Origin: a virus
Taxonomy: Duplodnaviria > Heunggongvirae > Uroviricota > Caudoviricetes
Length of the DNA stretch: 4,505 nucleotides
IMG/VR virus record: IMGVR_UViG_2690316028_000006
Location: 1 to 4,505 of that record
Strand: one strand, 5' to 3'
A program made the translations under genes and the position numbers. Positions 1 through 4,505 of the stretch are shown here, one piece after another (the first letter of the stretch is position 1; each line of letters begins with the position of its first letter). The notes under the pieces are model-generated. The model ran no database searches. It had not been told where the DNA came from and saw nothing but the letters and a program-made list of their open reading frames with translations.

Positions 1-593
1 AACTTCCGGCGAAGTCCATCTGGTGGCAGGGGGAGGAGTATAAAGCCTGGCCGTGTCAGATTGAGGGGATCGAGGCTTCAACCTCGGGAAGTAGTGCCCA
101 GCCAAAACTTTCGGTTGCTAACCTCGACAGTTCGATCACCGCGCTTTGCCTGGCTTACGACGATATGCTGCAGGCGAAGGTGACGATACATGACACCCTT
201 GGTAAGTATCTCGATGCGAGAAACTTCACCGGAGGCAATCCGACAGCCGATCCGACCCAGGAGAAGCTGAAGGTTTTCTACATCGATGCAAAGAGCAGTG
301 AAACCAATGAAGTTGTTGAGTTCACACTATCCAGCCCTATGGATCTGCAGGGGCTGATGATACCTACCCGCCAGCTTCATTCTCTGTGCACATGGTGCAT
401 CCGGAACAAGTACCGAACCGGCGACGGCTGCGACTATGCTGGTACGCGCTATTTCGACAAAAACAACAACCCGGTAAGCGATCCGTCGCTGGATGAATGC
501 AACGGCACGCTGACGGCCTGCAAACTCCGATTCGGCGAAGATAACGAACTCTCGTTTGGTGGCTTCCCGGGCACGTCTTTGATCAGGAGTTGA
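1..593 (+). CDS. L: Minor tail protein L (lambda gpL-like), 5'-partial; reading frame is open from position 3 to the TGA at 591-593
   Basis: Frame 3 has no stop from the window edge to 593. The translation (…SIWWQGEEYKAWPCQIEGIE…KLSVANLDSSITALCLAYDDMLQAK…CTWCIRNKYRTGDGCDYAG…DECNGTLTACKLRFG…NELSFGGFPGTSLIRS) matches the remembered architecture of lambda gpL, including the C-terminal cysteine cluster. The ORF-track entry 165..593 is only the part after an internal Met. Confidence 0.88.
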   Translation, partial: LPAKSIWWQGEEYKAWPCQIEGIEASTSGSSAQPKLSVANLDSSITALCLAYDDMLQAKVTIHDTLGKYLDARNFTGGNPTADPTQEKLKVFYIDAKSSETNEVVEFTLSSPMDLQGLMIPTRQLHSLCTWCIRNKYRTGDGCDYAGTRYFDKNNNPVSDPSLDECNGTLTACKLRFGEDNELSFGGFPGTSLIRS

Positions 594-594
594 T

Positions 595-1305
595 ATGCGT
601 CAGAAAACCATCGATGCGATTATGGCGCATGCTGCAGCTGAATATCCTCATGAGTGTTGCGGCGTGGTGGCGCAAAAGAGCCGGGTAGAGAAATATTTTC
701 CATGTAGTAACCTCGCTACCGAGCCGACAGAACATTTTCACCTGTCGCCAGAAGACTATGCCGCTGCTGAGGACTGGGGTACGGTGATCGCCATCGTTCA
801 CAGTCACCCTGACGCCACTACGCAGCCGAGCGAACTGGATAAAGCGCAATGCGACGCAACTCTTTTACCCTGGCATATTGTGAGCTGGCCGGAGGGGGAT
901 TTACGCACCATCCAGCCGCGCGGAGAACTGCCACTGCTGGAGCGTCCGTTTGTGCTTGGACACTTCGACTGCTGGGGGCTGGTAATGAGCTATTTCCGGC
1001 AAACGCATGGTATCGAGCTCCACGATTACCGGGTGGATTATCCCTGGTGGGAAAACGACTACCAGGACAATTTCTATCAGGAGTGCTGGTACGAGTGCGG
1101 ATTCAGGGAGTTTGATGGCCCGCCTCAGGAAGGGGACCTCATCATCATGCAGGTCCAGGCCGATAAGTGGAATCACGCGGGGATCCTGCTTGAGGGCAAT
1201 ATGCTACTGCATCATTTGTACGGTCATCTTAGCCAGCGCGTGCCATATGGTGGCTACTGGCAGGAAAGAACAATGAAAGTACTTCGGTACAAAGTATTTT
1301 GTTAA
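595..1305 (+). CDS. K: Tail assembly protein K (gpK-like), with an N-terminal MPN/JAMM metalloprotease-like domain and a C-terminal NlpC/P60-like domain
   Basis: 236-aa ORF starting 1 nt after the L stop, with CAGGAG 8 nt upstream of the ATG. Contains an exact JAMM motif HSHPDATTQPSELD (H-x-H-x7-S-xx-D, nt 799-840) and NlpC/P60-like Cys (FDCWG, nt 970-972) and His (NHAG, nt 1174-1176). Position after L fits lambdoid synteny. Confidence 0.9.
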   Translation: MRQKTIDAIMAHAAAEYPHECCGVVAQKSRVEKYFPCSNLATEPTEHFHLSPEDYAAAEDWGTVIAIVHSHPDATTQPSELDKAQCDATLLPWHIVSWPEGDLRTIQPRGELPLLERPFVLGHFDCWGLVMSYFRQTHGIELHDYRVDYPWWENDYQDNFYQECWYECGFREFDGPPQEGDLIIMQVQADKWNHAGILLEGNMLLHHLYGHLSQRVPYGGYWQERTMKVLRYKVFC

Positions 1306-1392
1306 TTCTATAGTGGTTAAGTTGTTAATTACTCACTCCATAACTTCATGTTAGTATTCCTCTGATATTTTCAATGAAAGGGAAGCTTAATT
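1306..1392 (+). promoter_or_regulatory. AT-rich leader of the lipoprotein cassette; probable moron promoter region plus Shine-Dalgarno (AAGGGAAG, about 1377-1384)
   Basis: Sharp drop in GC straight after the K stop codon. Several weak -35/-10-like hexamers are present (e.g. TTGTTA 1322-1327, TAGTAT 1352-1357, GATATT 1364-1369) but none forms a convincing pair with 16-18 bp spacing. Only the Shine-Dalgarno is reasonably clear. Confidence 0.3.
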
Positions 1393-1788
1393 GTGAAAAA
1401 AATATTGTTCTCTGGTCTTGTGGTGCTTGCCACCGCTGGATGTGCTGATAATAGGCCAATGCCGGTATTAGATACTAAGCCTGTCACATGTTCATCAGAG
1501 GCTGAATGTAGTTATCTTTGGTCGAAGGTTCCTCAGCATTTGGAGTTTGCAACAAAAATGAGAGTAGAATCAGCTAACGATACATTTATAACAACATTCC
1601 CACCTATTGATACAAGGCAACTTGCAGGACGGGCATCTAAGGTTAAACAGTCCGGCGATACGGCAATAAATGCTGAATTCCAATGCCATCGACATTATGG
1701 GCAGAAGGATTGTGAAAGGGCGGTAATTAATGCTACAAATTTCTTTAATCAAGCAATGAGCATTGAAAAGAAACATTTTAATAAATAA
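1393..1788 (+). CDS. Predicted lipoprotein, 131 aa, GTG start, function unknown (moron gene)
   Basis: N-terminus MKKILFSGLVVLATAGC has a basic n-region, a hydrophobic core and a lipobox-compatible ATAG|C with Ala at +2 (no Asp inner-membrane retention signal). The mature part has four Cys (C33, C39, C98, C107). Coding region is AT-rich relative to flanking tail genes, has its own Shine-Dalgarno and is followed by an intrinsic terminator. Confidence 0.75.
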   Translation: MKKILFSGLVVLATAGCADNRPMPVLDTKPVTCSSEAECSYLWSKVPQHLEFATKMRVESANDTFITTFPPIDTRQLAGRASKVKQSGDTAINAEFQCHRHYGQKDCERAVINATNFFNQAMSIEKKHFNK

Positions 1789-1812
1789 ACACCTAAATAA
1801 ATCAACCAAATT

Positions 1813-1834
1813 AAACCGCTTCGGCGGTTTTTTT
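1813..1834 (+). terminator. Rho-independent terminator of the lipoprotein cassette
   Basis: Perfect 7-bp stem AAACCGC/GCGGTTT with a TTCG tetraloop (1820-1823), followed by a T-run through 1834; located 25 nt after the lipoprotein stop codon. Confidence 0.75.
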
Positions 1835-1849
1835 ACGTGGGGGGATTAT

Positions 1850-2437
1850 ATGCAAGAGGTCATGAGTCGAATTGAATTAGGCAGTGTTCTTGGAAAAACG
1901 TTTGGCAAAGTTCACTACCGTCTGATATCCCGCGTAAGCGAAGCAGGCGTTGCACTCGCAAAAACCATTCCTGGATTTGAGCAGTTTATGATTTCCAGCC
2001 AACGCCGTGGGCTCACATACTCCGTGTTTAAGGGTAAAAAAAACATCGGTGTGGATGACCTTGGCTTCCCGATTACCGGCGAGGTTATTCGCATTGTTCC
2101 GGTAATCATCGGGAGTAAAAAAGCCGGTTTGATTCAAACTATCCTGGGCGCAGTATTAGTGATTGCATCGATCTGGATGCCAGGTCTGAGTATAGCTGCC
2201 AGCAATATGATGTTTGCTGCTGGTGCGTCCATAACGCTGGGGGGGGTAGTTCAGATGTTATCCCCTCAGGCTACAGGGCTGGCCAGCAAACAGAGCTCAG
2301 ATAACCGCGCCTCATACGCGTTCGGCGGGGTAACCAACACTGCAGCGCAAGGCTACCCAGTGCCTCTGCTTTATGGTAAGCGTCGAATCGGCGGAGCGAT
2401 TATTTCTGCCGGAATTTATGTCGAAGATCAACAGTAA
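1850..2437 (+). CDS. I: Tail assembly protein I (gpI-like)
   Basis: C-terminal region (…SITLGGVVQMLSPQATG…YPVPLLYGKRRIGGAIISAGIYVEDQQ) resembles the lambda gpI C-terminus as remembered (…GGVAQMLAPKA…VLPVLYGEMRVG…). Start chosen at ATG 1850 (a G6 run at 1839-1844 serves as Shine-Dalgarno, 5-nt spacer) rather than the track's 1763, which would overlap the lipoprotein gene and span the terminator. Confidence 0.8.
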   Translation: MQEVMSRIELGSVLGKTFGKVHYRLISRVSEAGVALAKTIPGFEQFMISSQRRGLTYSVFKGKKNIGVDDLGFPITGEVIRIVPVIIGSKKAGLIQTILGAVLVIASIWMPGLSIAASNMMFAAGASITLGGVVQMLSPQATGLASKQSSDNRASYAFGGVTNTAAQGYPVPLLYGKRRIGGAIISAGIYVEDQQ

Positions 2438-2474
2438 ATTAATTAACTTATTAGCTGATAGGCAGGAGAAAACT

Positions 2475-2792
2475 ATGACTTTAGAAGAGCGCATGAGCAT
2501 GCTTGAGGCAACCATCGCGAGCCTGCAGGTGGAGATAGCAGAGCTGCATAACCCGGCAATCGTCAATTCCGCCATTCAGAACGCACTACGGCCAGGTGGC
2601 GCTATTCATTCGATCATCACCGGTAATGGCTGGAGTTTGCGAGTAAAGGAGGGAAAGATTTCGCAGGGTGATGCAGGGGTTTTCGGTGGAACGGTAACAG
2701 CGGCCCAGAATGAGGCCGCTAAAACTCATGAAGAAATATTCAATGAAAAGCTCGATTTAATTATTTCTTTGATGCCACCTCTAAAACTTTAA
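2475..2792 (+). CDS. Hypothetical small protein, 105 aa, helical/coiled-coil-like N-terminus
   Basis: Strong Shine-Dalgarno AGGAG (2464-2468) with a 6-nt spacer to ATG 2475. Translation MTLEERMSMLEATIASLQVEIAELHNPAIVNSAIQNALRPGG…LMPPLKL. Start trimmed from the track's 2373, which begins inside gene I. No homolog recognised. Confidence 0.6.
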   Translation: MTLEERMSMLEATIASLQVEIAELHNPAIVNSAIQNALRPGGAIHSIITGNGWSLRVKEGKISQGDAGVFGGTVTAAQNEAAKTHEEIFNEKLDLIISLMPPLKL

Positions 2793-3021
2793 GGATGCGC
2801 GTGAACGCATCAATTGTGTGCGGATCATTACGTGCAGCTGATTCTGGGATTTTTGCTTGCCCTGCCTGATAGTTTTTAGTCAGAGCATCGAGTGCGCCTG
2901 GCCGGGCAATGTCCAGTAATTTCACAATGTCCGATAGAATCAGGCCAGTTGCAATTTCATGCGTAAGCAGCTTTTGTTTAAGCTCTGCCACTTCTTTTTC
3001 CAGTTCTAACATCGAACCCAT
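2761..3021 (-). CDS. Hypothetical small protein, 86 aa, convergent with and overlapping the 3' end of the 2475-2792 ORF
   Basis: Minus-strand ORF with a near-consensus Shine-Dalgarno (AAGGAG, 6-nt spacer, reverse complement of 3022-3040). Translation MGSMLELEKEVAELKQKLLTHEIATGLILSDIVKLLDIARPGALDAL…VASKK. No homolog recognised. Confidence 0.65.
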   Translation of the reverse strand: MGSMLELEKEVAELKQKLLTHEIATGLILSDIVKLLDIARPGALDALTKNYQAGQAKIPESAARNDPHTIDAFTRILKVLEVASKK

Positions 3022-3105
3022 TTACTTCTCCTTTTTCCAGAGGTAATCAGCCATTCCACCTGTTATGAGTTCACCAGCGTCCCACCGCTGGCGGGCTGAA
3101 TCCAC

Positions 3106-3132
3106 AACATAACCAGGTATTTAGATTTGTAA
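3106..3132 (-). promoter_or_regulatory. Candidate sigma70-like promoter for the minus-strand 86-aa ORF
   Basis: On the minus strand, TTACAA (complement of 3127-3132) and TATGTT (complement of 3106-3111) are separated by 15 nt. The match is weak and the spacing suboptimal. Confidence 0.2.
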
Positions 3133-3152
3133 CATCCTGATATTCAGACAGT

Positions 3153-3176
3153 AGCCACCTTTGGGTGGCTTTTTTA
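3153..3176 (+). terminator. Rho-independent terminator on the + strand, immediately upstream of the J start
   Basis: 7-bp stem AGCCACC/GGTGGCT with loop TTTG, followed by TTTTTT (3170-3175). The U-tract is on the + strand only; the minus-strand flank is not T-rich. Confidence 0.6.
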
Positions 3177-3186
3177 TGGGCGCAAT

Positions 3187-4505
3187 ATGGCTACAGATAA
3201 AGTGTTAAAAGGCCGCAAGGGCGGCAGCTCAAGTTCCCGAACCCCTACCGAACAGCCTGATGATCTGCAATCTGTAGCGAAGGCAAAAATCCTCGTTGCG
3301 CTTGGGGAAGGGGAGTTTGCTGGACAGCTCACCGGCAAAGATATCTACCTGGACGGAACAGCGCTGGAGAATGCTGACGGCTCCCAAAACTTCAGCGGGG
3401 TAACGTGGGAGTTTCGCGCGGGAACGCAGGCGCAAAAATATATTCAGGGTATTCCCGGTACCGAAAACGAGATCAGCGTAGGAACTGAGGTATCAAGTGC
3501 CACAGCCTGGACGCGCACGTTTACCAATACGCAGCTTTCAGCAGTTCGCCTGCGTCTTAAATGGCCCTCGCTTTTCAAACAGGAAGACGACGGCGATCTG
3601 GTGGGTTACTCGGTCAATTATGCGATTGACCTGCAGACTGACGGCGGCACATGGCAGACGGTACTCAATACCAGCGTGACCGGCAAAACGACGTCTGGTT
3701 ATGAGCGCAGCCACCGTATCGATTTACCGCAGGCTGGCAGCACATGGACAATACGTCTGCGTAAGATTACCTCTGACGCCAACAGCGCGAAGATCGGCGA
3801 CACGATGATGCTGCAGAGCTTCACCGAGGTGATTGACGCCAAACTGCGCTACCCGAACACCGCGCTGCTCTACGTCGAATTCGACTCAAGCCAGTTCAAC
3901 GGCTCTATTCCTCAAATTTCATGCGAACCGCGCGGCCGCGTTATCCGCGTTCCAGATACCTACGACCCTGAAACCCGCACTTATAGCGGTACATGGACCG
4001 GTGCGTTTAAGTGGGCATGGACGGATAACCCTGCGTGGATTTTTTACGACCTGGTTGTTTCTGACCGGTTCGGCCTTGGGCACCGTTTGACCGCTGCGAA
4101 TATTGATAAATGGACGCTTTATCAGGTTGCTCAGTATTGTGATCAGATGGTACCAGACGGCAAAGGGGGCAACGGTACAGAACCACGCTATACCTGCAAC
4201 GTGTACATTCAGGACCGGAACGACGCCTACACAGTCCTGCGTGATTTTGCCGCTATCTTCCGTGGCATGACCTACTGGGGCGGGGATCAGATTGTGGCCC
4301 TGGCTGACATGCCGCGCGATGTTGATTACAGCTATACGCGCGCTAACGTTGTTGGCGGTCGCTTCACCTATTCGAGCAGCACCACGAAAATCCGCTACAC
4401 CACAGCGCTGGTTTCATGGTCAGACCCGGGTAACGCTTATGCCGACGCGATGGAGCCGGTATTTGAGCAGGCGCTGGTGGCGCGGTACGGCTTCAATCAG
4501 CTGGA
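3187..4505 (+). CDS. J: Host specificity / tail tip protein J (gpJ-like), 3'-partial; runs off the window end
   Basis: Frame is open from ATG 3187 to the window end (about 439 codons). The translation (MATDKVLKGRKGGSSSSRTP…NTALLYVEFDSSQFNG…RGRVIRVPDTYDPETRTYSGTWTGAF…NPAWIFYDLVVSDRFGLG…DKWTLYQVAQYCDQMVPDG…) parallels the remembered lambda gpJ N-terminal region (…YPNTALVGVQVDSEQFG…RGRILQVPSNYNPQTRQYSGIWDGTF…DKWALYVIGQYCDQSVPDG…). Absent from the ORF track only because it has no stop in the window. Confidence 0.9.
   Translation, partial: MATDKVLKGRKGGSSSSRTPTEQPDDLQSVAKAKILVALGEGEFAGQLTGKDIYLDGTALENADGSQNFSGVTWEFRAGTQAQKYIQGIPGTENEISVGTEVSSATAWTRTFTNTQLSAVRLRLKWPSLFKQEDDGDLVGYSVNYAIDLQTDGGTWQTVLNTSVTGKTTSGYERSHRIDLPQAGSTWTIRLRKITSDANSAKIGDTMMLQSFTEVIDAKLRYPNTALLYVEFDSSQFNGSIPQISCEPRGRVIRVPDTYDPETRTYSGTWTGAFKWAWTDNPAWIFYDLVVSDRFGLGHRLTAANIDKWTLYQVAQYCDQMVPDGKGGNGTEPRYTCNVYIQDRNDAYTVLRDFAAIFRGMTYWGGDQIVALADMPRDVDYSYTRANVVGGRFTYSSSTTKIRYTTALVSWSDPGNAYADAMEPVFEQALVARYGFNQL

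Follow-up and report, generated by a model that had tools for sequence, protein, structure and literature searches.

Temperate phages store genes that change their lysogens, with functions in exclusion, defence and virulence, in so-called morons, and most of the small ones are unnamed. In the definition of Juhala et al. 2000, in the form in which it is quoted in PMC3594210, a moron is a piece of extra DNA between genes that are adjacent in related phages, which differs in base composition, possesses its own promoter and terminator and is expressed in the prophage. The element described here is such an insert between the tail genes I and J of a tailed phage (Caudoviricetes; IMG/VR record IMGVR_UViG_2690316028_000006, positions 1 to 4,505, this whole stretch of 4,505 nucleotides (nt) being denoted the window in the following). 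It harbors two small convergent open reading frames (ORFs), namely ORF105 in the forward and ORF86 in the reverse orientation. The latter is preceded by a putative promoter and a structured leader that are shared with otherwise unrelated reverse genes of other prophages.

With regard to gene layout, comparable pairs are annotated in the GenBank records of cultured phages, following Juhala et al. 2000 and the ES18 genome paper. In the HK97 record, gene 22 is listed as "moron product" and gene 23 as "reverse moron product", the HK022 record labels both gene 22 and gene 23 ("srb") "moron gene product", and genes 24 and 25 of ES18 ("possible moron") form a forward and reverse pair at the M/L junction. 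Like the cassette in the window, all of these comprise a forward ORF, a convergent reverse ORF and a plus-strand terminator before the next tail gene, those of HK97 and HK022 being located at I/J as well. In the literature searched, no tested function was found for the HK97, HK022 and ES18 morons, and no functional study of srb, DUF2594, HK97 gp22 and gp23 or the mEp phages. A different HK97 moron, gp15, is inserted between tail genes, expressed from the prophage and protects the lysogen by superinfection exclusion (PMC3594210). It resembles the cassette as an accessory gene between tail genes of an HK97-like phage; unlike the soluble, reverse-oriented ORF86, gp15 is an inner-membrane protein encoded in forward direction, and the two share no sequence similarity.

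With regard to expression, the Tab/anti-Tab pair of the Pseudomonas phage JBD26 is of particular relevance. The tab gene (83 aa) is located on the minus strand inside the late operon and expressed in the prophage from a promoter of its own, and its product prevents invading phages from assembling their tails. The partner gene atab, on the plus strand, comes right after the late gene upstream of it, is produced only during lytic growth and then neutralises Tab; the target of Tab is the tape measure protein, and binding by anti-Tab has been shown experimentally (PMC10884400). In the JBD26 record the 3′ ends of tab and atab overlap by 47 nt. Furthermore, STnc6030 of the Salmonella prophage BTP1 and STMMW_20121 of ST64B are independent units that run antisense to lytic or structural genes and are expressed during lysogeny, one of them acting in superinfection exclusion (PMC7067206). 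STnc6030 differs from the cassette in being a non-coding antisense RNA, and no sequence relation of either unit to the cassette was found. The ST64B antisense locus was also considered as a copy of the same platform and rejected, its record showing a Mu-like tail region devoid of the leader.

A moron cassette between the tail genes I and J

The initial annotation of the window described two small tail-to-tail ORFs with strong Shine-Dalgarno (SD) sequences and a plus-strand terminator between I and J. The coordinates of these elements were confirmed by ORF listing and translation, and together with the elements identified in this study they are arranged as follows.

2438-2474, plus strand: left flank of the insertion, carrying the SD sequence AGGAG of the forward slot (2464-2468)
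2475-2792, plus strand: ORF105 (105 aa), forward slot in late-operon sense
2761-3021, minus strand: ORF86 (86 aa), reverse slot (cargo)
2761-2792: 32-nt overlap of the convergent 3′ ends of ORF105 and ORF86
3022-3099, minus strand: conserved structured 5′ leader of ORF86, about 78 nt, delineated by alignments, pair counts, genome scan and window fold
3106-3111, minus strand: predicted -10 hexamer TATGTT of the ORF86 promoter, at a fixed distance to the leader
3129-3134, plus-strand numbering: weak -35-like TGTTAC, candidate for the ORF86 promoter
3112-3152, minus strand: conserved upstream promoter region with the blocks TACTG, TATCAGG.TGTT and CCTGG, seen as nearly invariant alignment columns
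3153-3176, plus strand: intrinsic I/J terminator, hairpin AGCCACC-TTTG-GGTGGCT followed by a T-run

The SD sequence of ORF86, AGGAG on the minus strand (CTCCT at plus-strand positions 3029-3033), lies 7 nt before its ATG, and that of ORF105 lies 6 nt before the ATG at 2475. The terminator was located by scan at 3153-3170, 16 nt 5′ of the start of J at 3187.

In mEpX1, I and J are separated by just 52 nt, counted from the stop codon of I, and these carry an annotated terminator alone. Compared with this empty site, the roughly 715 bp from 2438 to about 3150 constitute an insertion, as had been anticipated from the direct adjacency of I and J in lambda, and the terminator, which is present in cassette-free mEpX1 and also in HK97, belongs to the backbone. 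A megablast search of positions 2300-3300 against phage records gave the same two-piece match, limited to the terminal part of I and the beginning of J at about 96% identity, for mEpX1 and seven further phages (HK75, HK106, HK140, HK446, mEp234, mEp235 and mEpX2). The extra DNA therefore separates genes that are adjacent in related phages. Its base composition differs modestly from that of the neighbours, with a GC content of 0.44-0.47 at 2600-3200, whereas J has 0.53-0.56 and the final part of I 0.57. As to a terminator of its own, the plus-strand hairpin at 3153-3170 is a backbone element, and on the minus strand beyond the ORF86 stop codon a GC hairpin without T-run is found, which was not called by the scan.

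The cassette is present in 3 of 5,426 complete Escherichia coli genomes; E. coli VREC0864 (NZ_LR536431) is an example of a lysogen that carries it. Its absence from related phages, its rarity and the lack of tail homology bear out the proposal that its genes are accessory rather than core tail genes. HK97, HK022 and mEp506 also bear inserts at I/J. The insert is a modular accessory moron cassette of the HK97 22/23-type class, and the I/J junction is an already known moron site, this type of locus having been annotated years earlier in HK97, HK022 and ES18. The suggestion that the pair represents an undescribed system does not hold in that respect, since HK97 22/23, HK022 22/23 and ES18 24/25 are annotated with the same layout. 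Taken alone, the cassette is ordinary, another occupant of a known hot spot with two uncharacterised proteins. What is new here is the combination, across Enterobacterales, of a shared putative promoter and leader with swappable cargo, of which no description was found in Rfam, the examined records or the searched literature.

Putative promoter and structured leader upstream of ORF86

Within the 165 nt upstream of ORF86, about 130-150 nt are conserved with HK022, HK97, mEp506 and ES18 as well as with the loci of ORF86 relatives, though the reverse genes themselves are unrelated, and some copies of this region sit at junctions other than I/J. A hexamer of the form TAnnnT is found 6-7 nt upstream of the TCAGCC box at the 5′ end of the leader in 47 of 48 genome copies and, among the matches listed, in all 77 IMG/VR copies, hence in 124/125 overall; in shuffled sequences TAnnnT occurs at any of 10 positions in 21%. 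Since TAnnnT is a -10 signature and is held at a fixed distance, the transcription start is placed at or next to TCAGCC, on the minus strand at about window position 3099. The promoter of ORF86 is accordingly described here, from its sequence, as a putative weak promoter of the sigma-70 type belonging to ORF86 itself.

Folding of aligned copies with RNAalifold in the sense of ORF86 yields a stem P1 that encloses a hairpin P2. The helices of the leader are:

P1: UCAGCC (plus-strand positions 3094-3099) paired with GGCUGA (plus-strand positions 3047-3052)
P2: hairpin at plus-strand positions 3074-3091
P4: candidate helix, AGAGG-like sequence paired with CCUCU

The P2 stems differ by genus (CAGUG/CACUG, CCAUG/CAUGG, CCUGUG/CACAGG and UCCAC/GUGGA), and in an alignment including the genomes found via the anchor sequence alone (see below) compensatory changes are observed at 5 of the 6 pairs. 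U-G is the commonest pair at one position of P2 and G-U pairs recur elsewhere in it; because these would be C-A mismatches on the plus strand, the structure belongs to the ORF86 transcript. P4 is 84% paired and shows double changes at four pairs. In the minimum-energy fold of the window copy both P1 and P2 form, while CCUCU pairs with the SD sequence; that this pairing acts together with P4 as a translational switch is speculation. Both strands of the whole window were compared to Rfam by cmscan, with no match at E≤1, and the leader is unannotated in all phage and E. coli records examined.

Upstream of the leader, an imperfect inverted repeat (ATCAGG ... CCTGGT) extends across the spacer between the -35 and -10 regions within 3112-3152 of the minus strand, and judging from their sequence the conserved blocks of this segment could be a regulator binding site. 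Two specific candidates were discarded upon reading the sequence: a LexA box, as the spacing is CTG-N9-CAG instead of CTG-N10-CAG, and a sigma-54 promoter, as the window copy lacks the GC element.

The leader is combined with exchangeable cargo genes

The distribution of the leader was determined by two scans. The first one, of IMG/VR, employed a pattern derived from the conserved blocks with several bases fixed and matched at least 120 contigs. The counts of leader copies, cargo families and forward ORFs given below refer to the matches listed. Behind 141 of the 143 copies, at a distance of about 20-28 nt, there begins a complete small ORF that is equipped with an SD sequence and reads against the tail genes. 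By BLASTP these ORFs fall into 21 families, two of which (42 and 56 aa) are possibly miscalls, so that about 21 small genes without relation to one another follow the leader, at several junctions of tail genes. A Pfam domain is found in only two cargo families, DUF1883 in one and an aspartic-protease-like domain in the other. Pairwise hhalign comparison of the 21 families and Tab yielded probabilities of 66% for F1-F8, 57% for F17-F18 and 54% for F3-F14 and no link to Tab, and as these links are weak no cargo superfamily is claimed. ORF86 itself belongs to family F1, srb to F2 and gp23 to F20, the F1-F2 probability being 1.2%; likewise, BLASTP of ORF86 against HK97 gp23 and HK022 srb, and of ORF105 against HK97 gp22 and HK022 gp22, gave E≥2.6 or no alignment.

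Because several bases had been fixed in the first pattern, a second scan used a single 17-mer taken from the 3′ portion of the leader and covered 596 Gb, with each species represented by one genome. Out of 108 matches 52 were genuine and 56 were not, with about 70 chance matches expected in 596 Gb, and the TCAGCC 5′ box is located upstream in all 52 genuine ones. Genuine leaders are essentially all from Enterobacterales, including Enterobacter, Citrobacter, Kluyvera, Pantoea, Erwinia, Pectobacterium, Xenorhabdus, Photorhabdus and others. Among cultured phages, the same platform is carried by HK97, HK022, ES18, mEp043, mEp213 and HK633. The reuse in front of some twenty unrelated small genes suggests that promoter and leader are a portable unit for the expression of a gene from an otherwise silent prophage. 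Together with the -10-like hexamer at its fixed distance, the leader flags reverse small genes at tail junctions and hence provides a simple listing of candidate lysogen-expressed effectors in prophages of Escherichia, Salmonella, Enterobacter, Citrobacter, Pantoea, Erwinia, Pectobacterium, Xenorhabdus and Photorhabdus.

Several copies deviate from the arrangement in the window. In Xenorhabdus and Photorhabdus genomes (L147-L234; e.g. L148, 400-466) the leader is short, keeping the TCAGCC box and the GGAUGGCUGAUUACCUC block with an A-rich stretch of about 18 nt instead of P2. One tail region (L032) contains two leader copies about 2 kb apart (2272-2323 and 4324-4375), one driving a gene for an aspartic-protease-like protein of 154 aa, the other a gene similar to srb. 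In a subset of viral contigs, e.g. at L029 (4609-5799), L032 (2629-3966) and L041 (3013-4350), the cassette is preceded by a gene for a protein of 396-445 aa, which by eye is glycosyltransferase-like and not a lambda-type tail gene; the platform is thus not confined to tail blocks of the L/K/I/J type.

The reverse gene ORF86

ORF86 encodes a soluble, near-neutral protein without transmembrane segment, the family of which is characterized by the conserved motif ARNDPHT.DAF. The AlphaFold 2 model consists of three helices (residues 2-39, 43-56 and 67-85) with a predicted local distance difference test (pLDDT) score of 93; a Foldseek search of the PDB with this model returned generic helical matches only, at a best E of 1.2. 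The protein corresponds to phrog_23209, of unknown function. Neither ORF86 nor ORF105 has a match in Pfam, NCBIfam or PADLOC, where only sub-threshold noise (ZapB, TraT, RskA_N, YbaB) was seen, and tblastn of both against 50,697 phage records gave no match. The statement of the initial annotation that neither protein is recognisable is thereby corroborated, the corresponding PHROGs being of unknown function as well.

The family is small, comprising 13 clusters in a word-indexed search and 11 clusters at 50% identity in a profile search of 1.8 billion representatives. With a median ratio of nonsynonymous to synonymous substitution rates (dN/dS) of 0.11 among its relatives, ORF86 is a real gene under strong purifying selection. 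The exact protein is present in 907 blocks of an assembly collection. In all ten places listed of these 907 blocks it is found between I and J beside a forward ORF, while the content of the K/I junction, the type of J and the type of tape measure vary. Diverged relatives are located at the junction of the tape measure gene with the next gene (L018, L019) and, beside two Rap1a-family genes, at the M/L junction (L020-L022). In the latter (L020, 4566-5325; also L021 and L022) the relative is 80% identical, and beyond its convergent forward ORF there follow, sharing the strand of the relative, two tandem genes with the Rap1a domain of a type VI secretion immunity family. Their vicinity suggests lysogen-protective cargo travelling with the cassette.

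The forward gene ORF105 and its pairing with reverse genes

ORF105 encodes a soluble, acidic protein (pI 5.25) without transmembrane segment and corresponds to phrog_22477 (E 1.9e-72), of unknown function. Its AlphaFold 2 model (pLDDT 58) shows N-terminal helices, a Gly-rich middle of low confidence (residues 42-81 below pLDDT 50) and a C-terminal helix, and was too poor for a fold search. Out of 5.8 billion proteins, its relatives amount to 4 clusters at 90% identity. The Prokaryotic Genome Annotation Pipeline calls a 124-aa product from an ATG at 2418, overlapping the end of I; the start at 2475 is preferred as it is the sole ATG with an SD sequence and all relatives begin there with MTLE. 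The frame is open from 2373, and its first part coincides with the final 65 nt of I, which is read in a different frame. A frameshift fusion of ORF105 with I is not evident, PHROGs 29765 and 13555, the C-termini of which match the N-terminal region of ORF105, being absent among the families of I. HK97 has the near-identical ribosome-binding-site context AGGCAGGAGAGCGTTATG before its unrelated gene 22.

A convergent forward ORF of 45-180 aa accompanies 120 of the 141 leader copies, and 77 of these 120 start with a coiled coil of the MTLE(Q/E)R(V/M)E.LE type, such MTLE-type ORFs being found next to ten different cargo families. The forward ORFs are mosaics, in which the N-terminus, an RPGG motif (present in ORF105) and a domain of phrog_11851 recur; HK97 gp22 also matches phrog_11851 (E 3.7e-5). 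The motifs RPGG and GDAGVFGG.VTAA recur on diverged DNA, and length differences among the variants preserve the reading frame. Median dN/dS among forward-ORF relatives is 0.38, with values of 0.14-0.3 for members of the phrog_11851 type, above 1 for a few pairs and 0.36 for ORF105 itself compared with its counterpart in L007. ORF105 is probably a real, fast-evolving late protein of a mosaic family and is not tied to ORF86 as its partner.

It had been asked whether the pair is gained and lost as a unit, and the synteny comparison speaks against this. In L007 an identical ORF86 is combined with a forward ORF only 56% identical to ORF105, MTLE-type forward ORFs accompany reverse genes of many families as described above, and ORF86 relatives at other tail junctions have quite different forward ORFs. 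The convergent layout is nevertheless kept in most copies, often, and in most of the related loci, with an overlap of the 3′ ends of exactly 32 nt, which suggests a coupling of the two genes.

Proposed function and alternative explanations

The reading to which we incline, by a little more than even chances, is that of a two-slot moron with a logic similar to that of Tab, in which ORF86 is expressed in the lysogen and ORF105 from the late operon. ORF86 would be transcribed against the late operon from its own promoter in the lysogen, beginning within a few bases of 3099, and its mRNA would begin with the leader, the first stem P1 at the very 5′ end closing around P2. In E. coli, 5′-terminal stems protect mRNAs from 5′-end-dependent decay. 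ORF105, which has an SD sequence but no promoter of its own and lies within the late operon, would for these reasons be made in lytic growth only. The ORF86 protein would be of advantage to the lysogen, its most likely action being interference with incoming phages. Once the prophage is induced, late transcription subject to anti-termination would cross the cassette, collide with the ORF86 transcript, to which it is antisense, and silence ORF86; as late transcription is convergent and antisense, any gene in the reverse slot should be switched off upon induction. ORF105 may also neutralise the ORF86 protein.

In common with Tab/anti-Tab, the cassette has a small minus-strand gene in the late operon, its promoter here being a predicted one, and a forward partner after the upstream late gene; in both cases the genes are convergent, with a 3′ overlap of 47 nt in JBD26 versus 32 nt here, and the proteins are soluble and acidic to neutral. 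JBD26 differs in being a Mu-like Pseudomonas phage with the pair inserted between terminase genes, and the forward partner here reassorts among cargo families. The comparison is meant as a hypothesis of how the cassette may work, not as an assignment to the same family. It makes a Tab-like function directly testable in E. coli with the cultured phages that carry the platform. A defence function, which had been proposed among others for the cassette, is plausible.

Several observations weigh against the two-slot reading. A consensus promoter scan of the window called no promoter, and the -35 region matches 2-4 of the 6 consensus bases. P1 never varies and is therefore without support from covariation, its invariance in the IMG/VR set being imposed by the search pattern; the folding energy of the window leader is ordinary (z = -1.46). 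The ORF86 profile compared to Tab with hhalign gives a probability of 0.1%, and BLASTP of ORF105 against anti-Tab gives no alignment. The reassortment of forward ORFs among cargo families weakens a role as specific protein antidote, and a forward ORF is absent from 21 of the 141 leader copies.

If two independent morons merely shared a hot spot, their genes could reassort as freely as observed; ORF86 would be expressed in the lysogen and act on the host, e.g. as a small regulator or protein inhibitor with no bearing on phage defence, and ORF105 would be a late accessory of the tail tip or its assembly. The forward ORFs indeed form a mosaic family of their own, with the MTLEQRVEALE coiled coil, RPGG and the domain shared with HK97 gp22 (phrog_11851), and the Pfam family Phage_Tail_Tip is matched by one relative below the cut-off (E 0.0015). 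ORF105 itself, however, matches no tail family, cassette-free phages build their tails regardless, and the retention of the convergent layout with overlapping 3′ ends suggests coupling. This explanation is regarded as possible, at roughly one chance in four. Less probable still, yet deserving consideration, is that only the reverse gene is functional and ORF105 a by-product, the conserved left flank (SD sequence and about 12 codons) serving as a recombination joint from which the frame happens to stay open across the 3′ untranslated and terminator region of ORF86. The tiny family of 4 clusters, the poor model with its low-confidence residues, forward-ORF lengths of 53-134 aa with unrelated middles, dN/dS values above 1 in some pairs and the copies devoid of a forward ORF would fit this; the median dN/dS and the lower values of the phrog_11851 type, the recurrence of protein motifs on diverged DNA, the strong SD sequence and the frame-preserving length changes argue for a translated protein and make the by-product improbable.

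Very unlikely is a module for toxin-antitoxin or abortive infection in which the convergent transcripts regulate each other by antisense pairing, one product being toxic and kept in check by the other transcript or protein. Two small convergent genes with overlapping 3′ ends would be compatible with it, but neither protein has a transmembrane segment or resembles a hydrophobic peptide of type I, no toxin or antitoxin was matched in Pfam, NCBIfam or PADLOC, and the partners reassort; the convergent layout does not fit the co-directional operon of type II, so a classical operon for toxin-antitoxin, one of the functions that had been suggested, is set aside. Least credible of all is a lineage-specific role of the two in the core tail, be it structural or in assembly. 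Their position within the tail-tip gene block is in line with such a role, but it is contradicted by the empty sites of close relatives with about 96% identical flanks, by the unrelated genes that occupy the same site in HK97, HK022 and mEp506, and by the orientation of ORF86 opposite to the late operon.

Extended from the two-slot moron of the window to all leader copies, the reading would be that promoter and leader form a so far undescribed cis-acting RNA expression platform, that the reverse-slot gene is expressed in the lysogen and switched off by late transcription, and that the approximately twenty cargo families are prophage inhibitors of competing phages, many with late counter-proteins in the manner of Tab/anti-Tab. 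This generalization is considerably more tentative and, taken as a whole, would rather be expected to fail than to hold.

Flanking genes and a second moron at the K/I junction

According to family scans and the ORF listing, the window spans the tail-tip genes of a lambda/HK97-like siphovirus, with the following features around the cassette.

165-593: L, C-terminal part
595-1305: K, with JAB and NlpC/P60 domains
1393-1788: lipoprotein-like ORF of low GC content
1813-1830: terminator after the lipoprotein-like ORF
1850-2437: I (phrog_32, E 6e-72)
from 3187: J (FNIII-A_GpJ, E 1.6e-51)

The K/I junction (1393-1830) contains a second moron, an ORF of 131 aa with a GC content of 0.36-0.42 and the lipoprotein signal MKKILFSGLVVLATAGC. 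Its product has no match in Pfam, and its sole match is phrog_16082, of unknown function; the scan calls the hairpin 3′ of the ORF a terminator for either strand. The K/I junction of related prophages is occupied by a KilA-N protein, by ORFs of 111-141 aa or by no gene, and in L008 by a group II intron reverse transcriptase.

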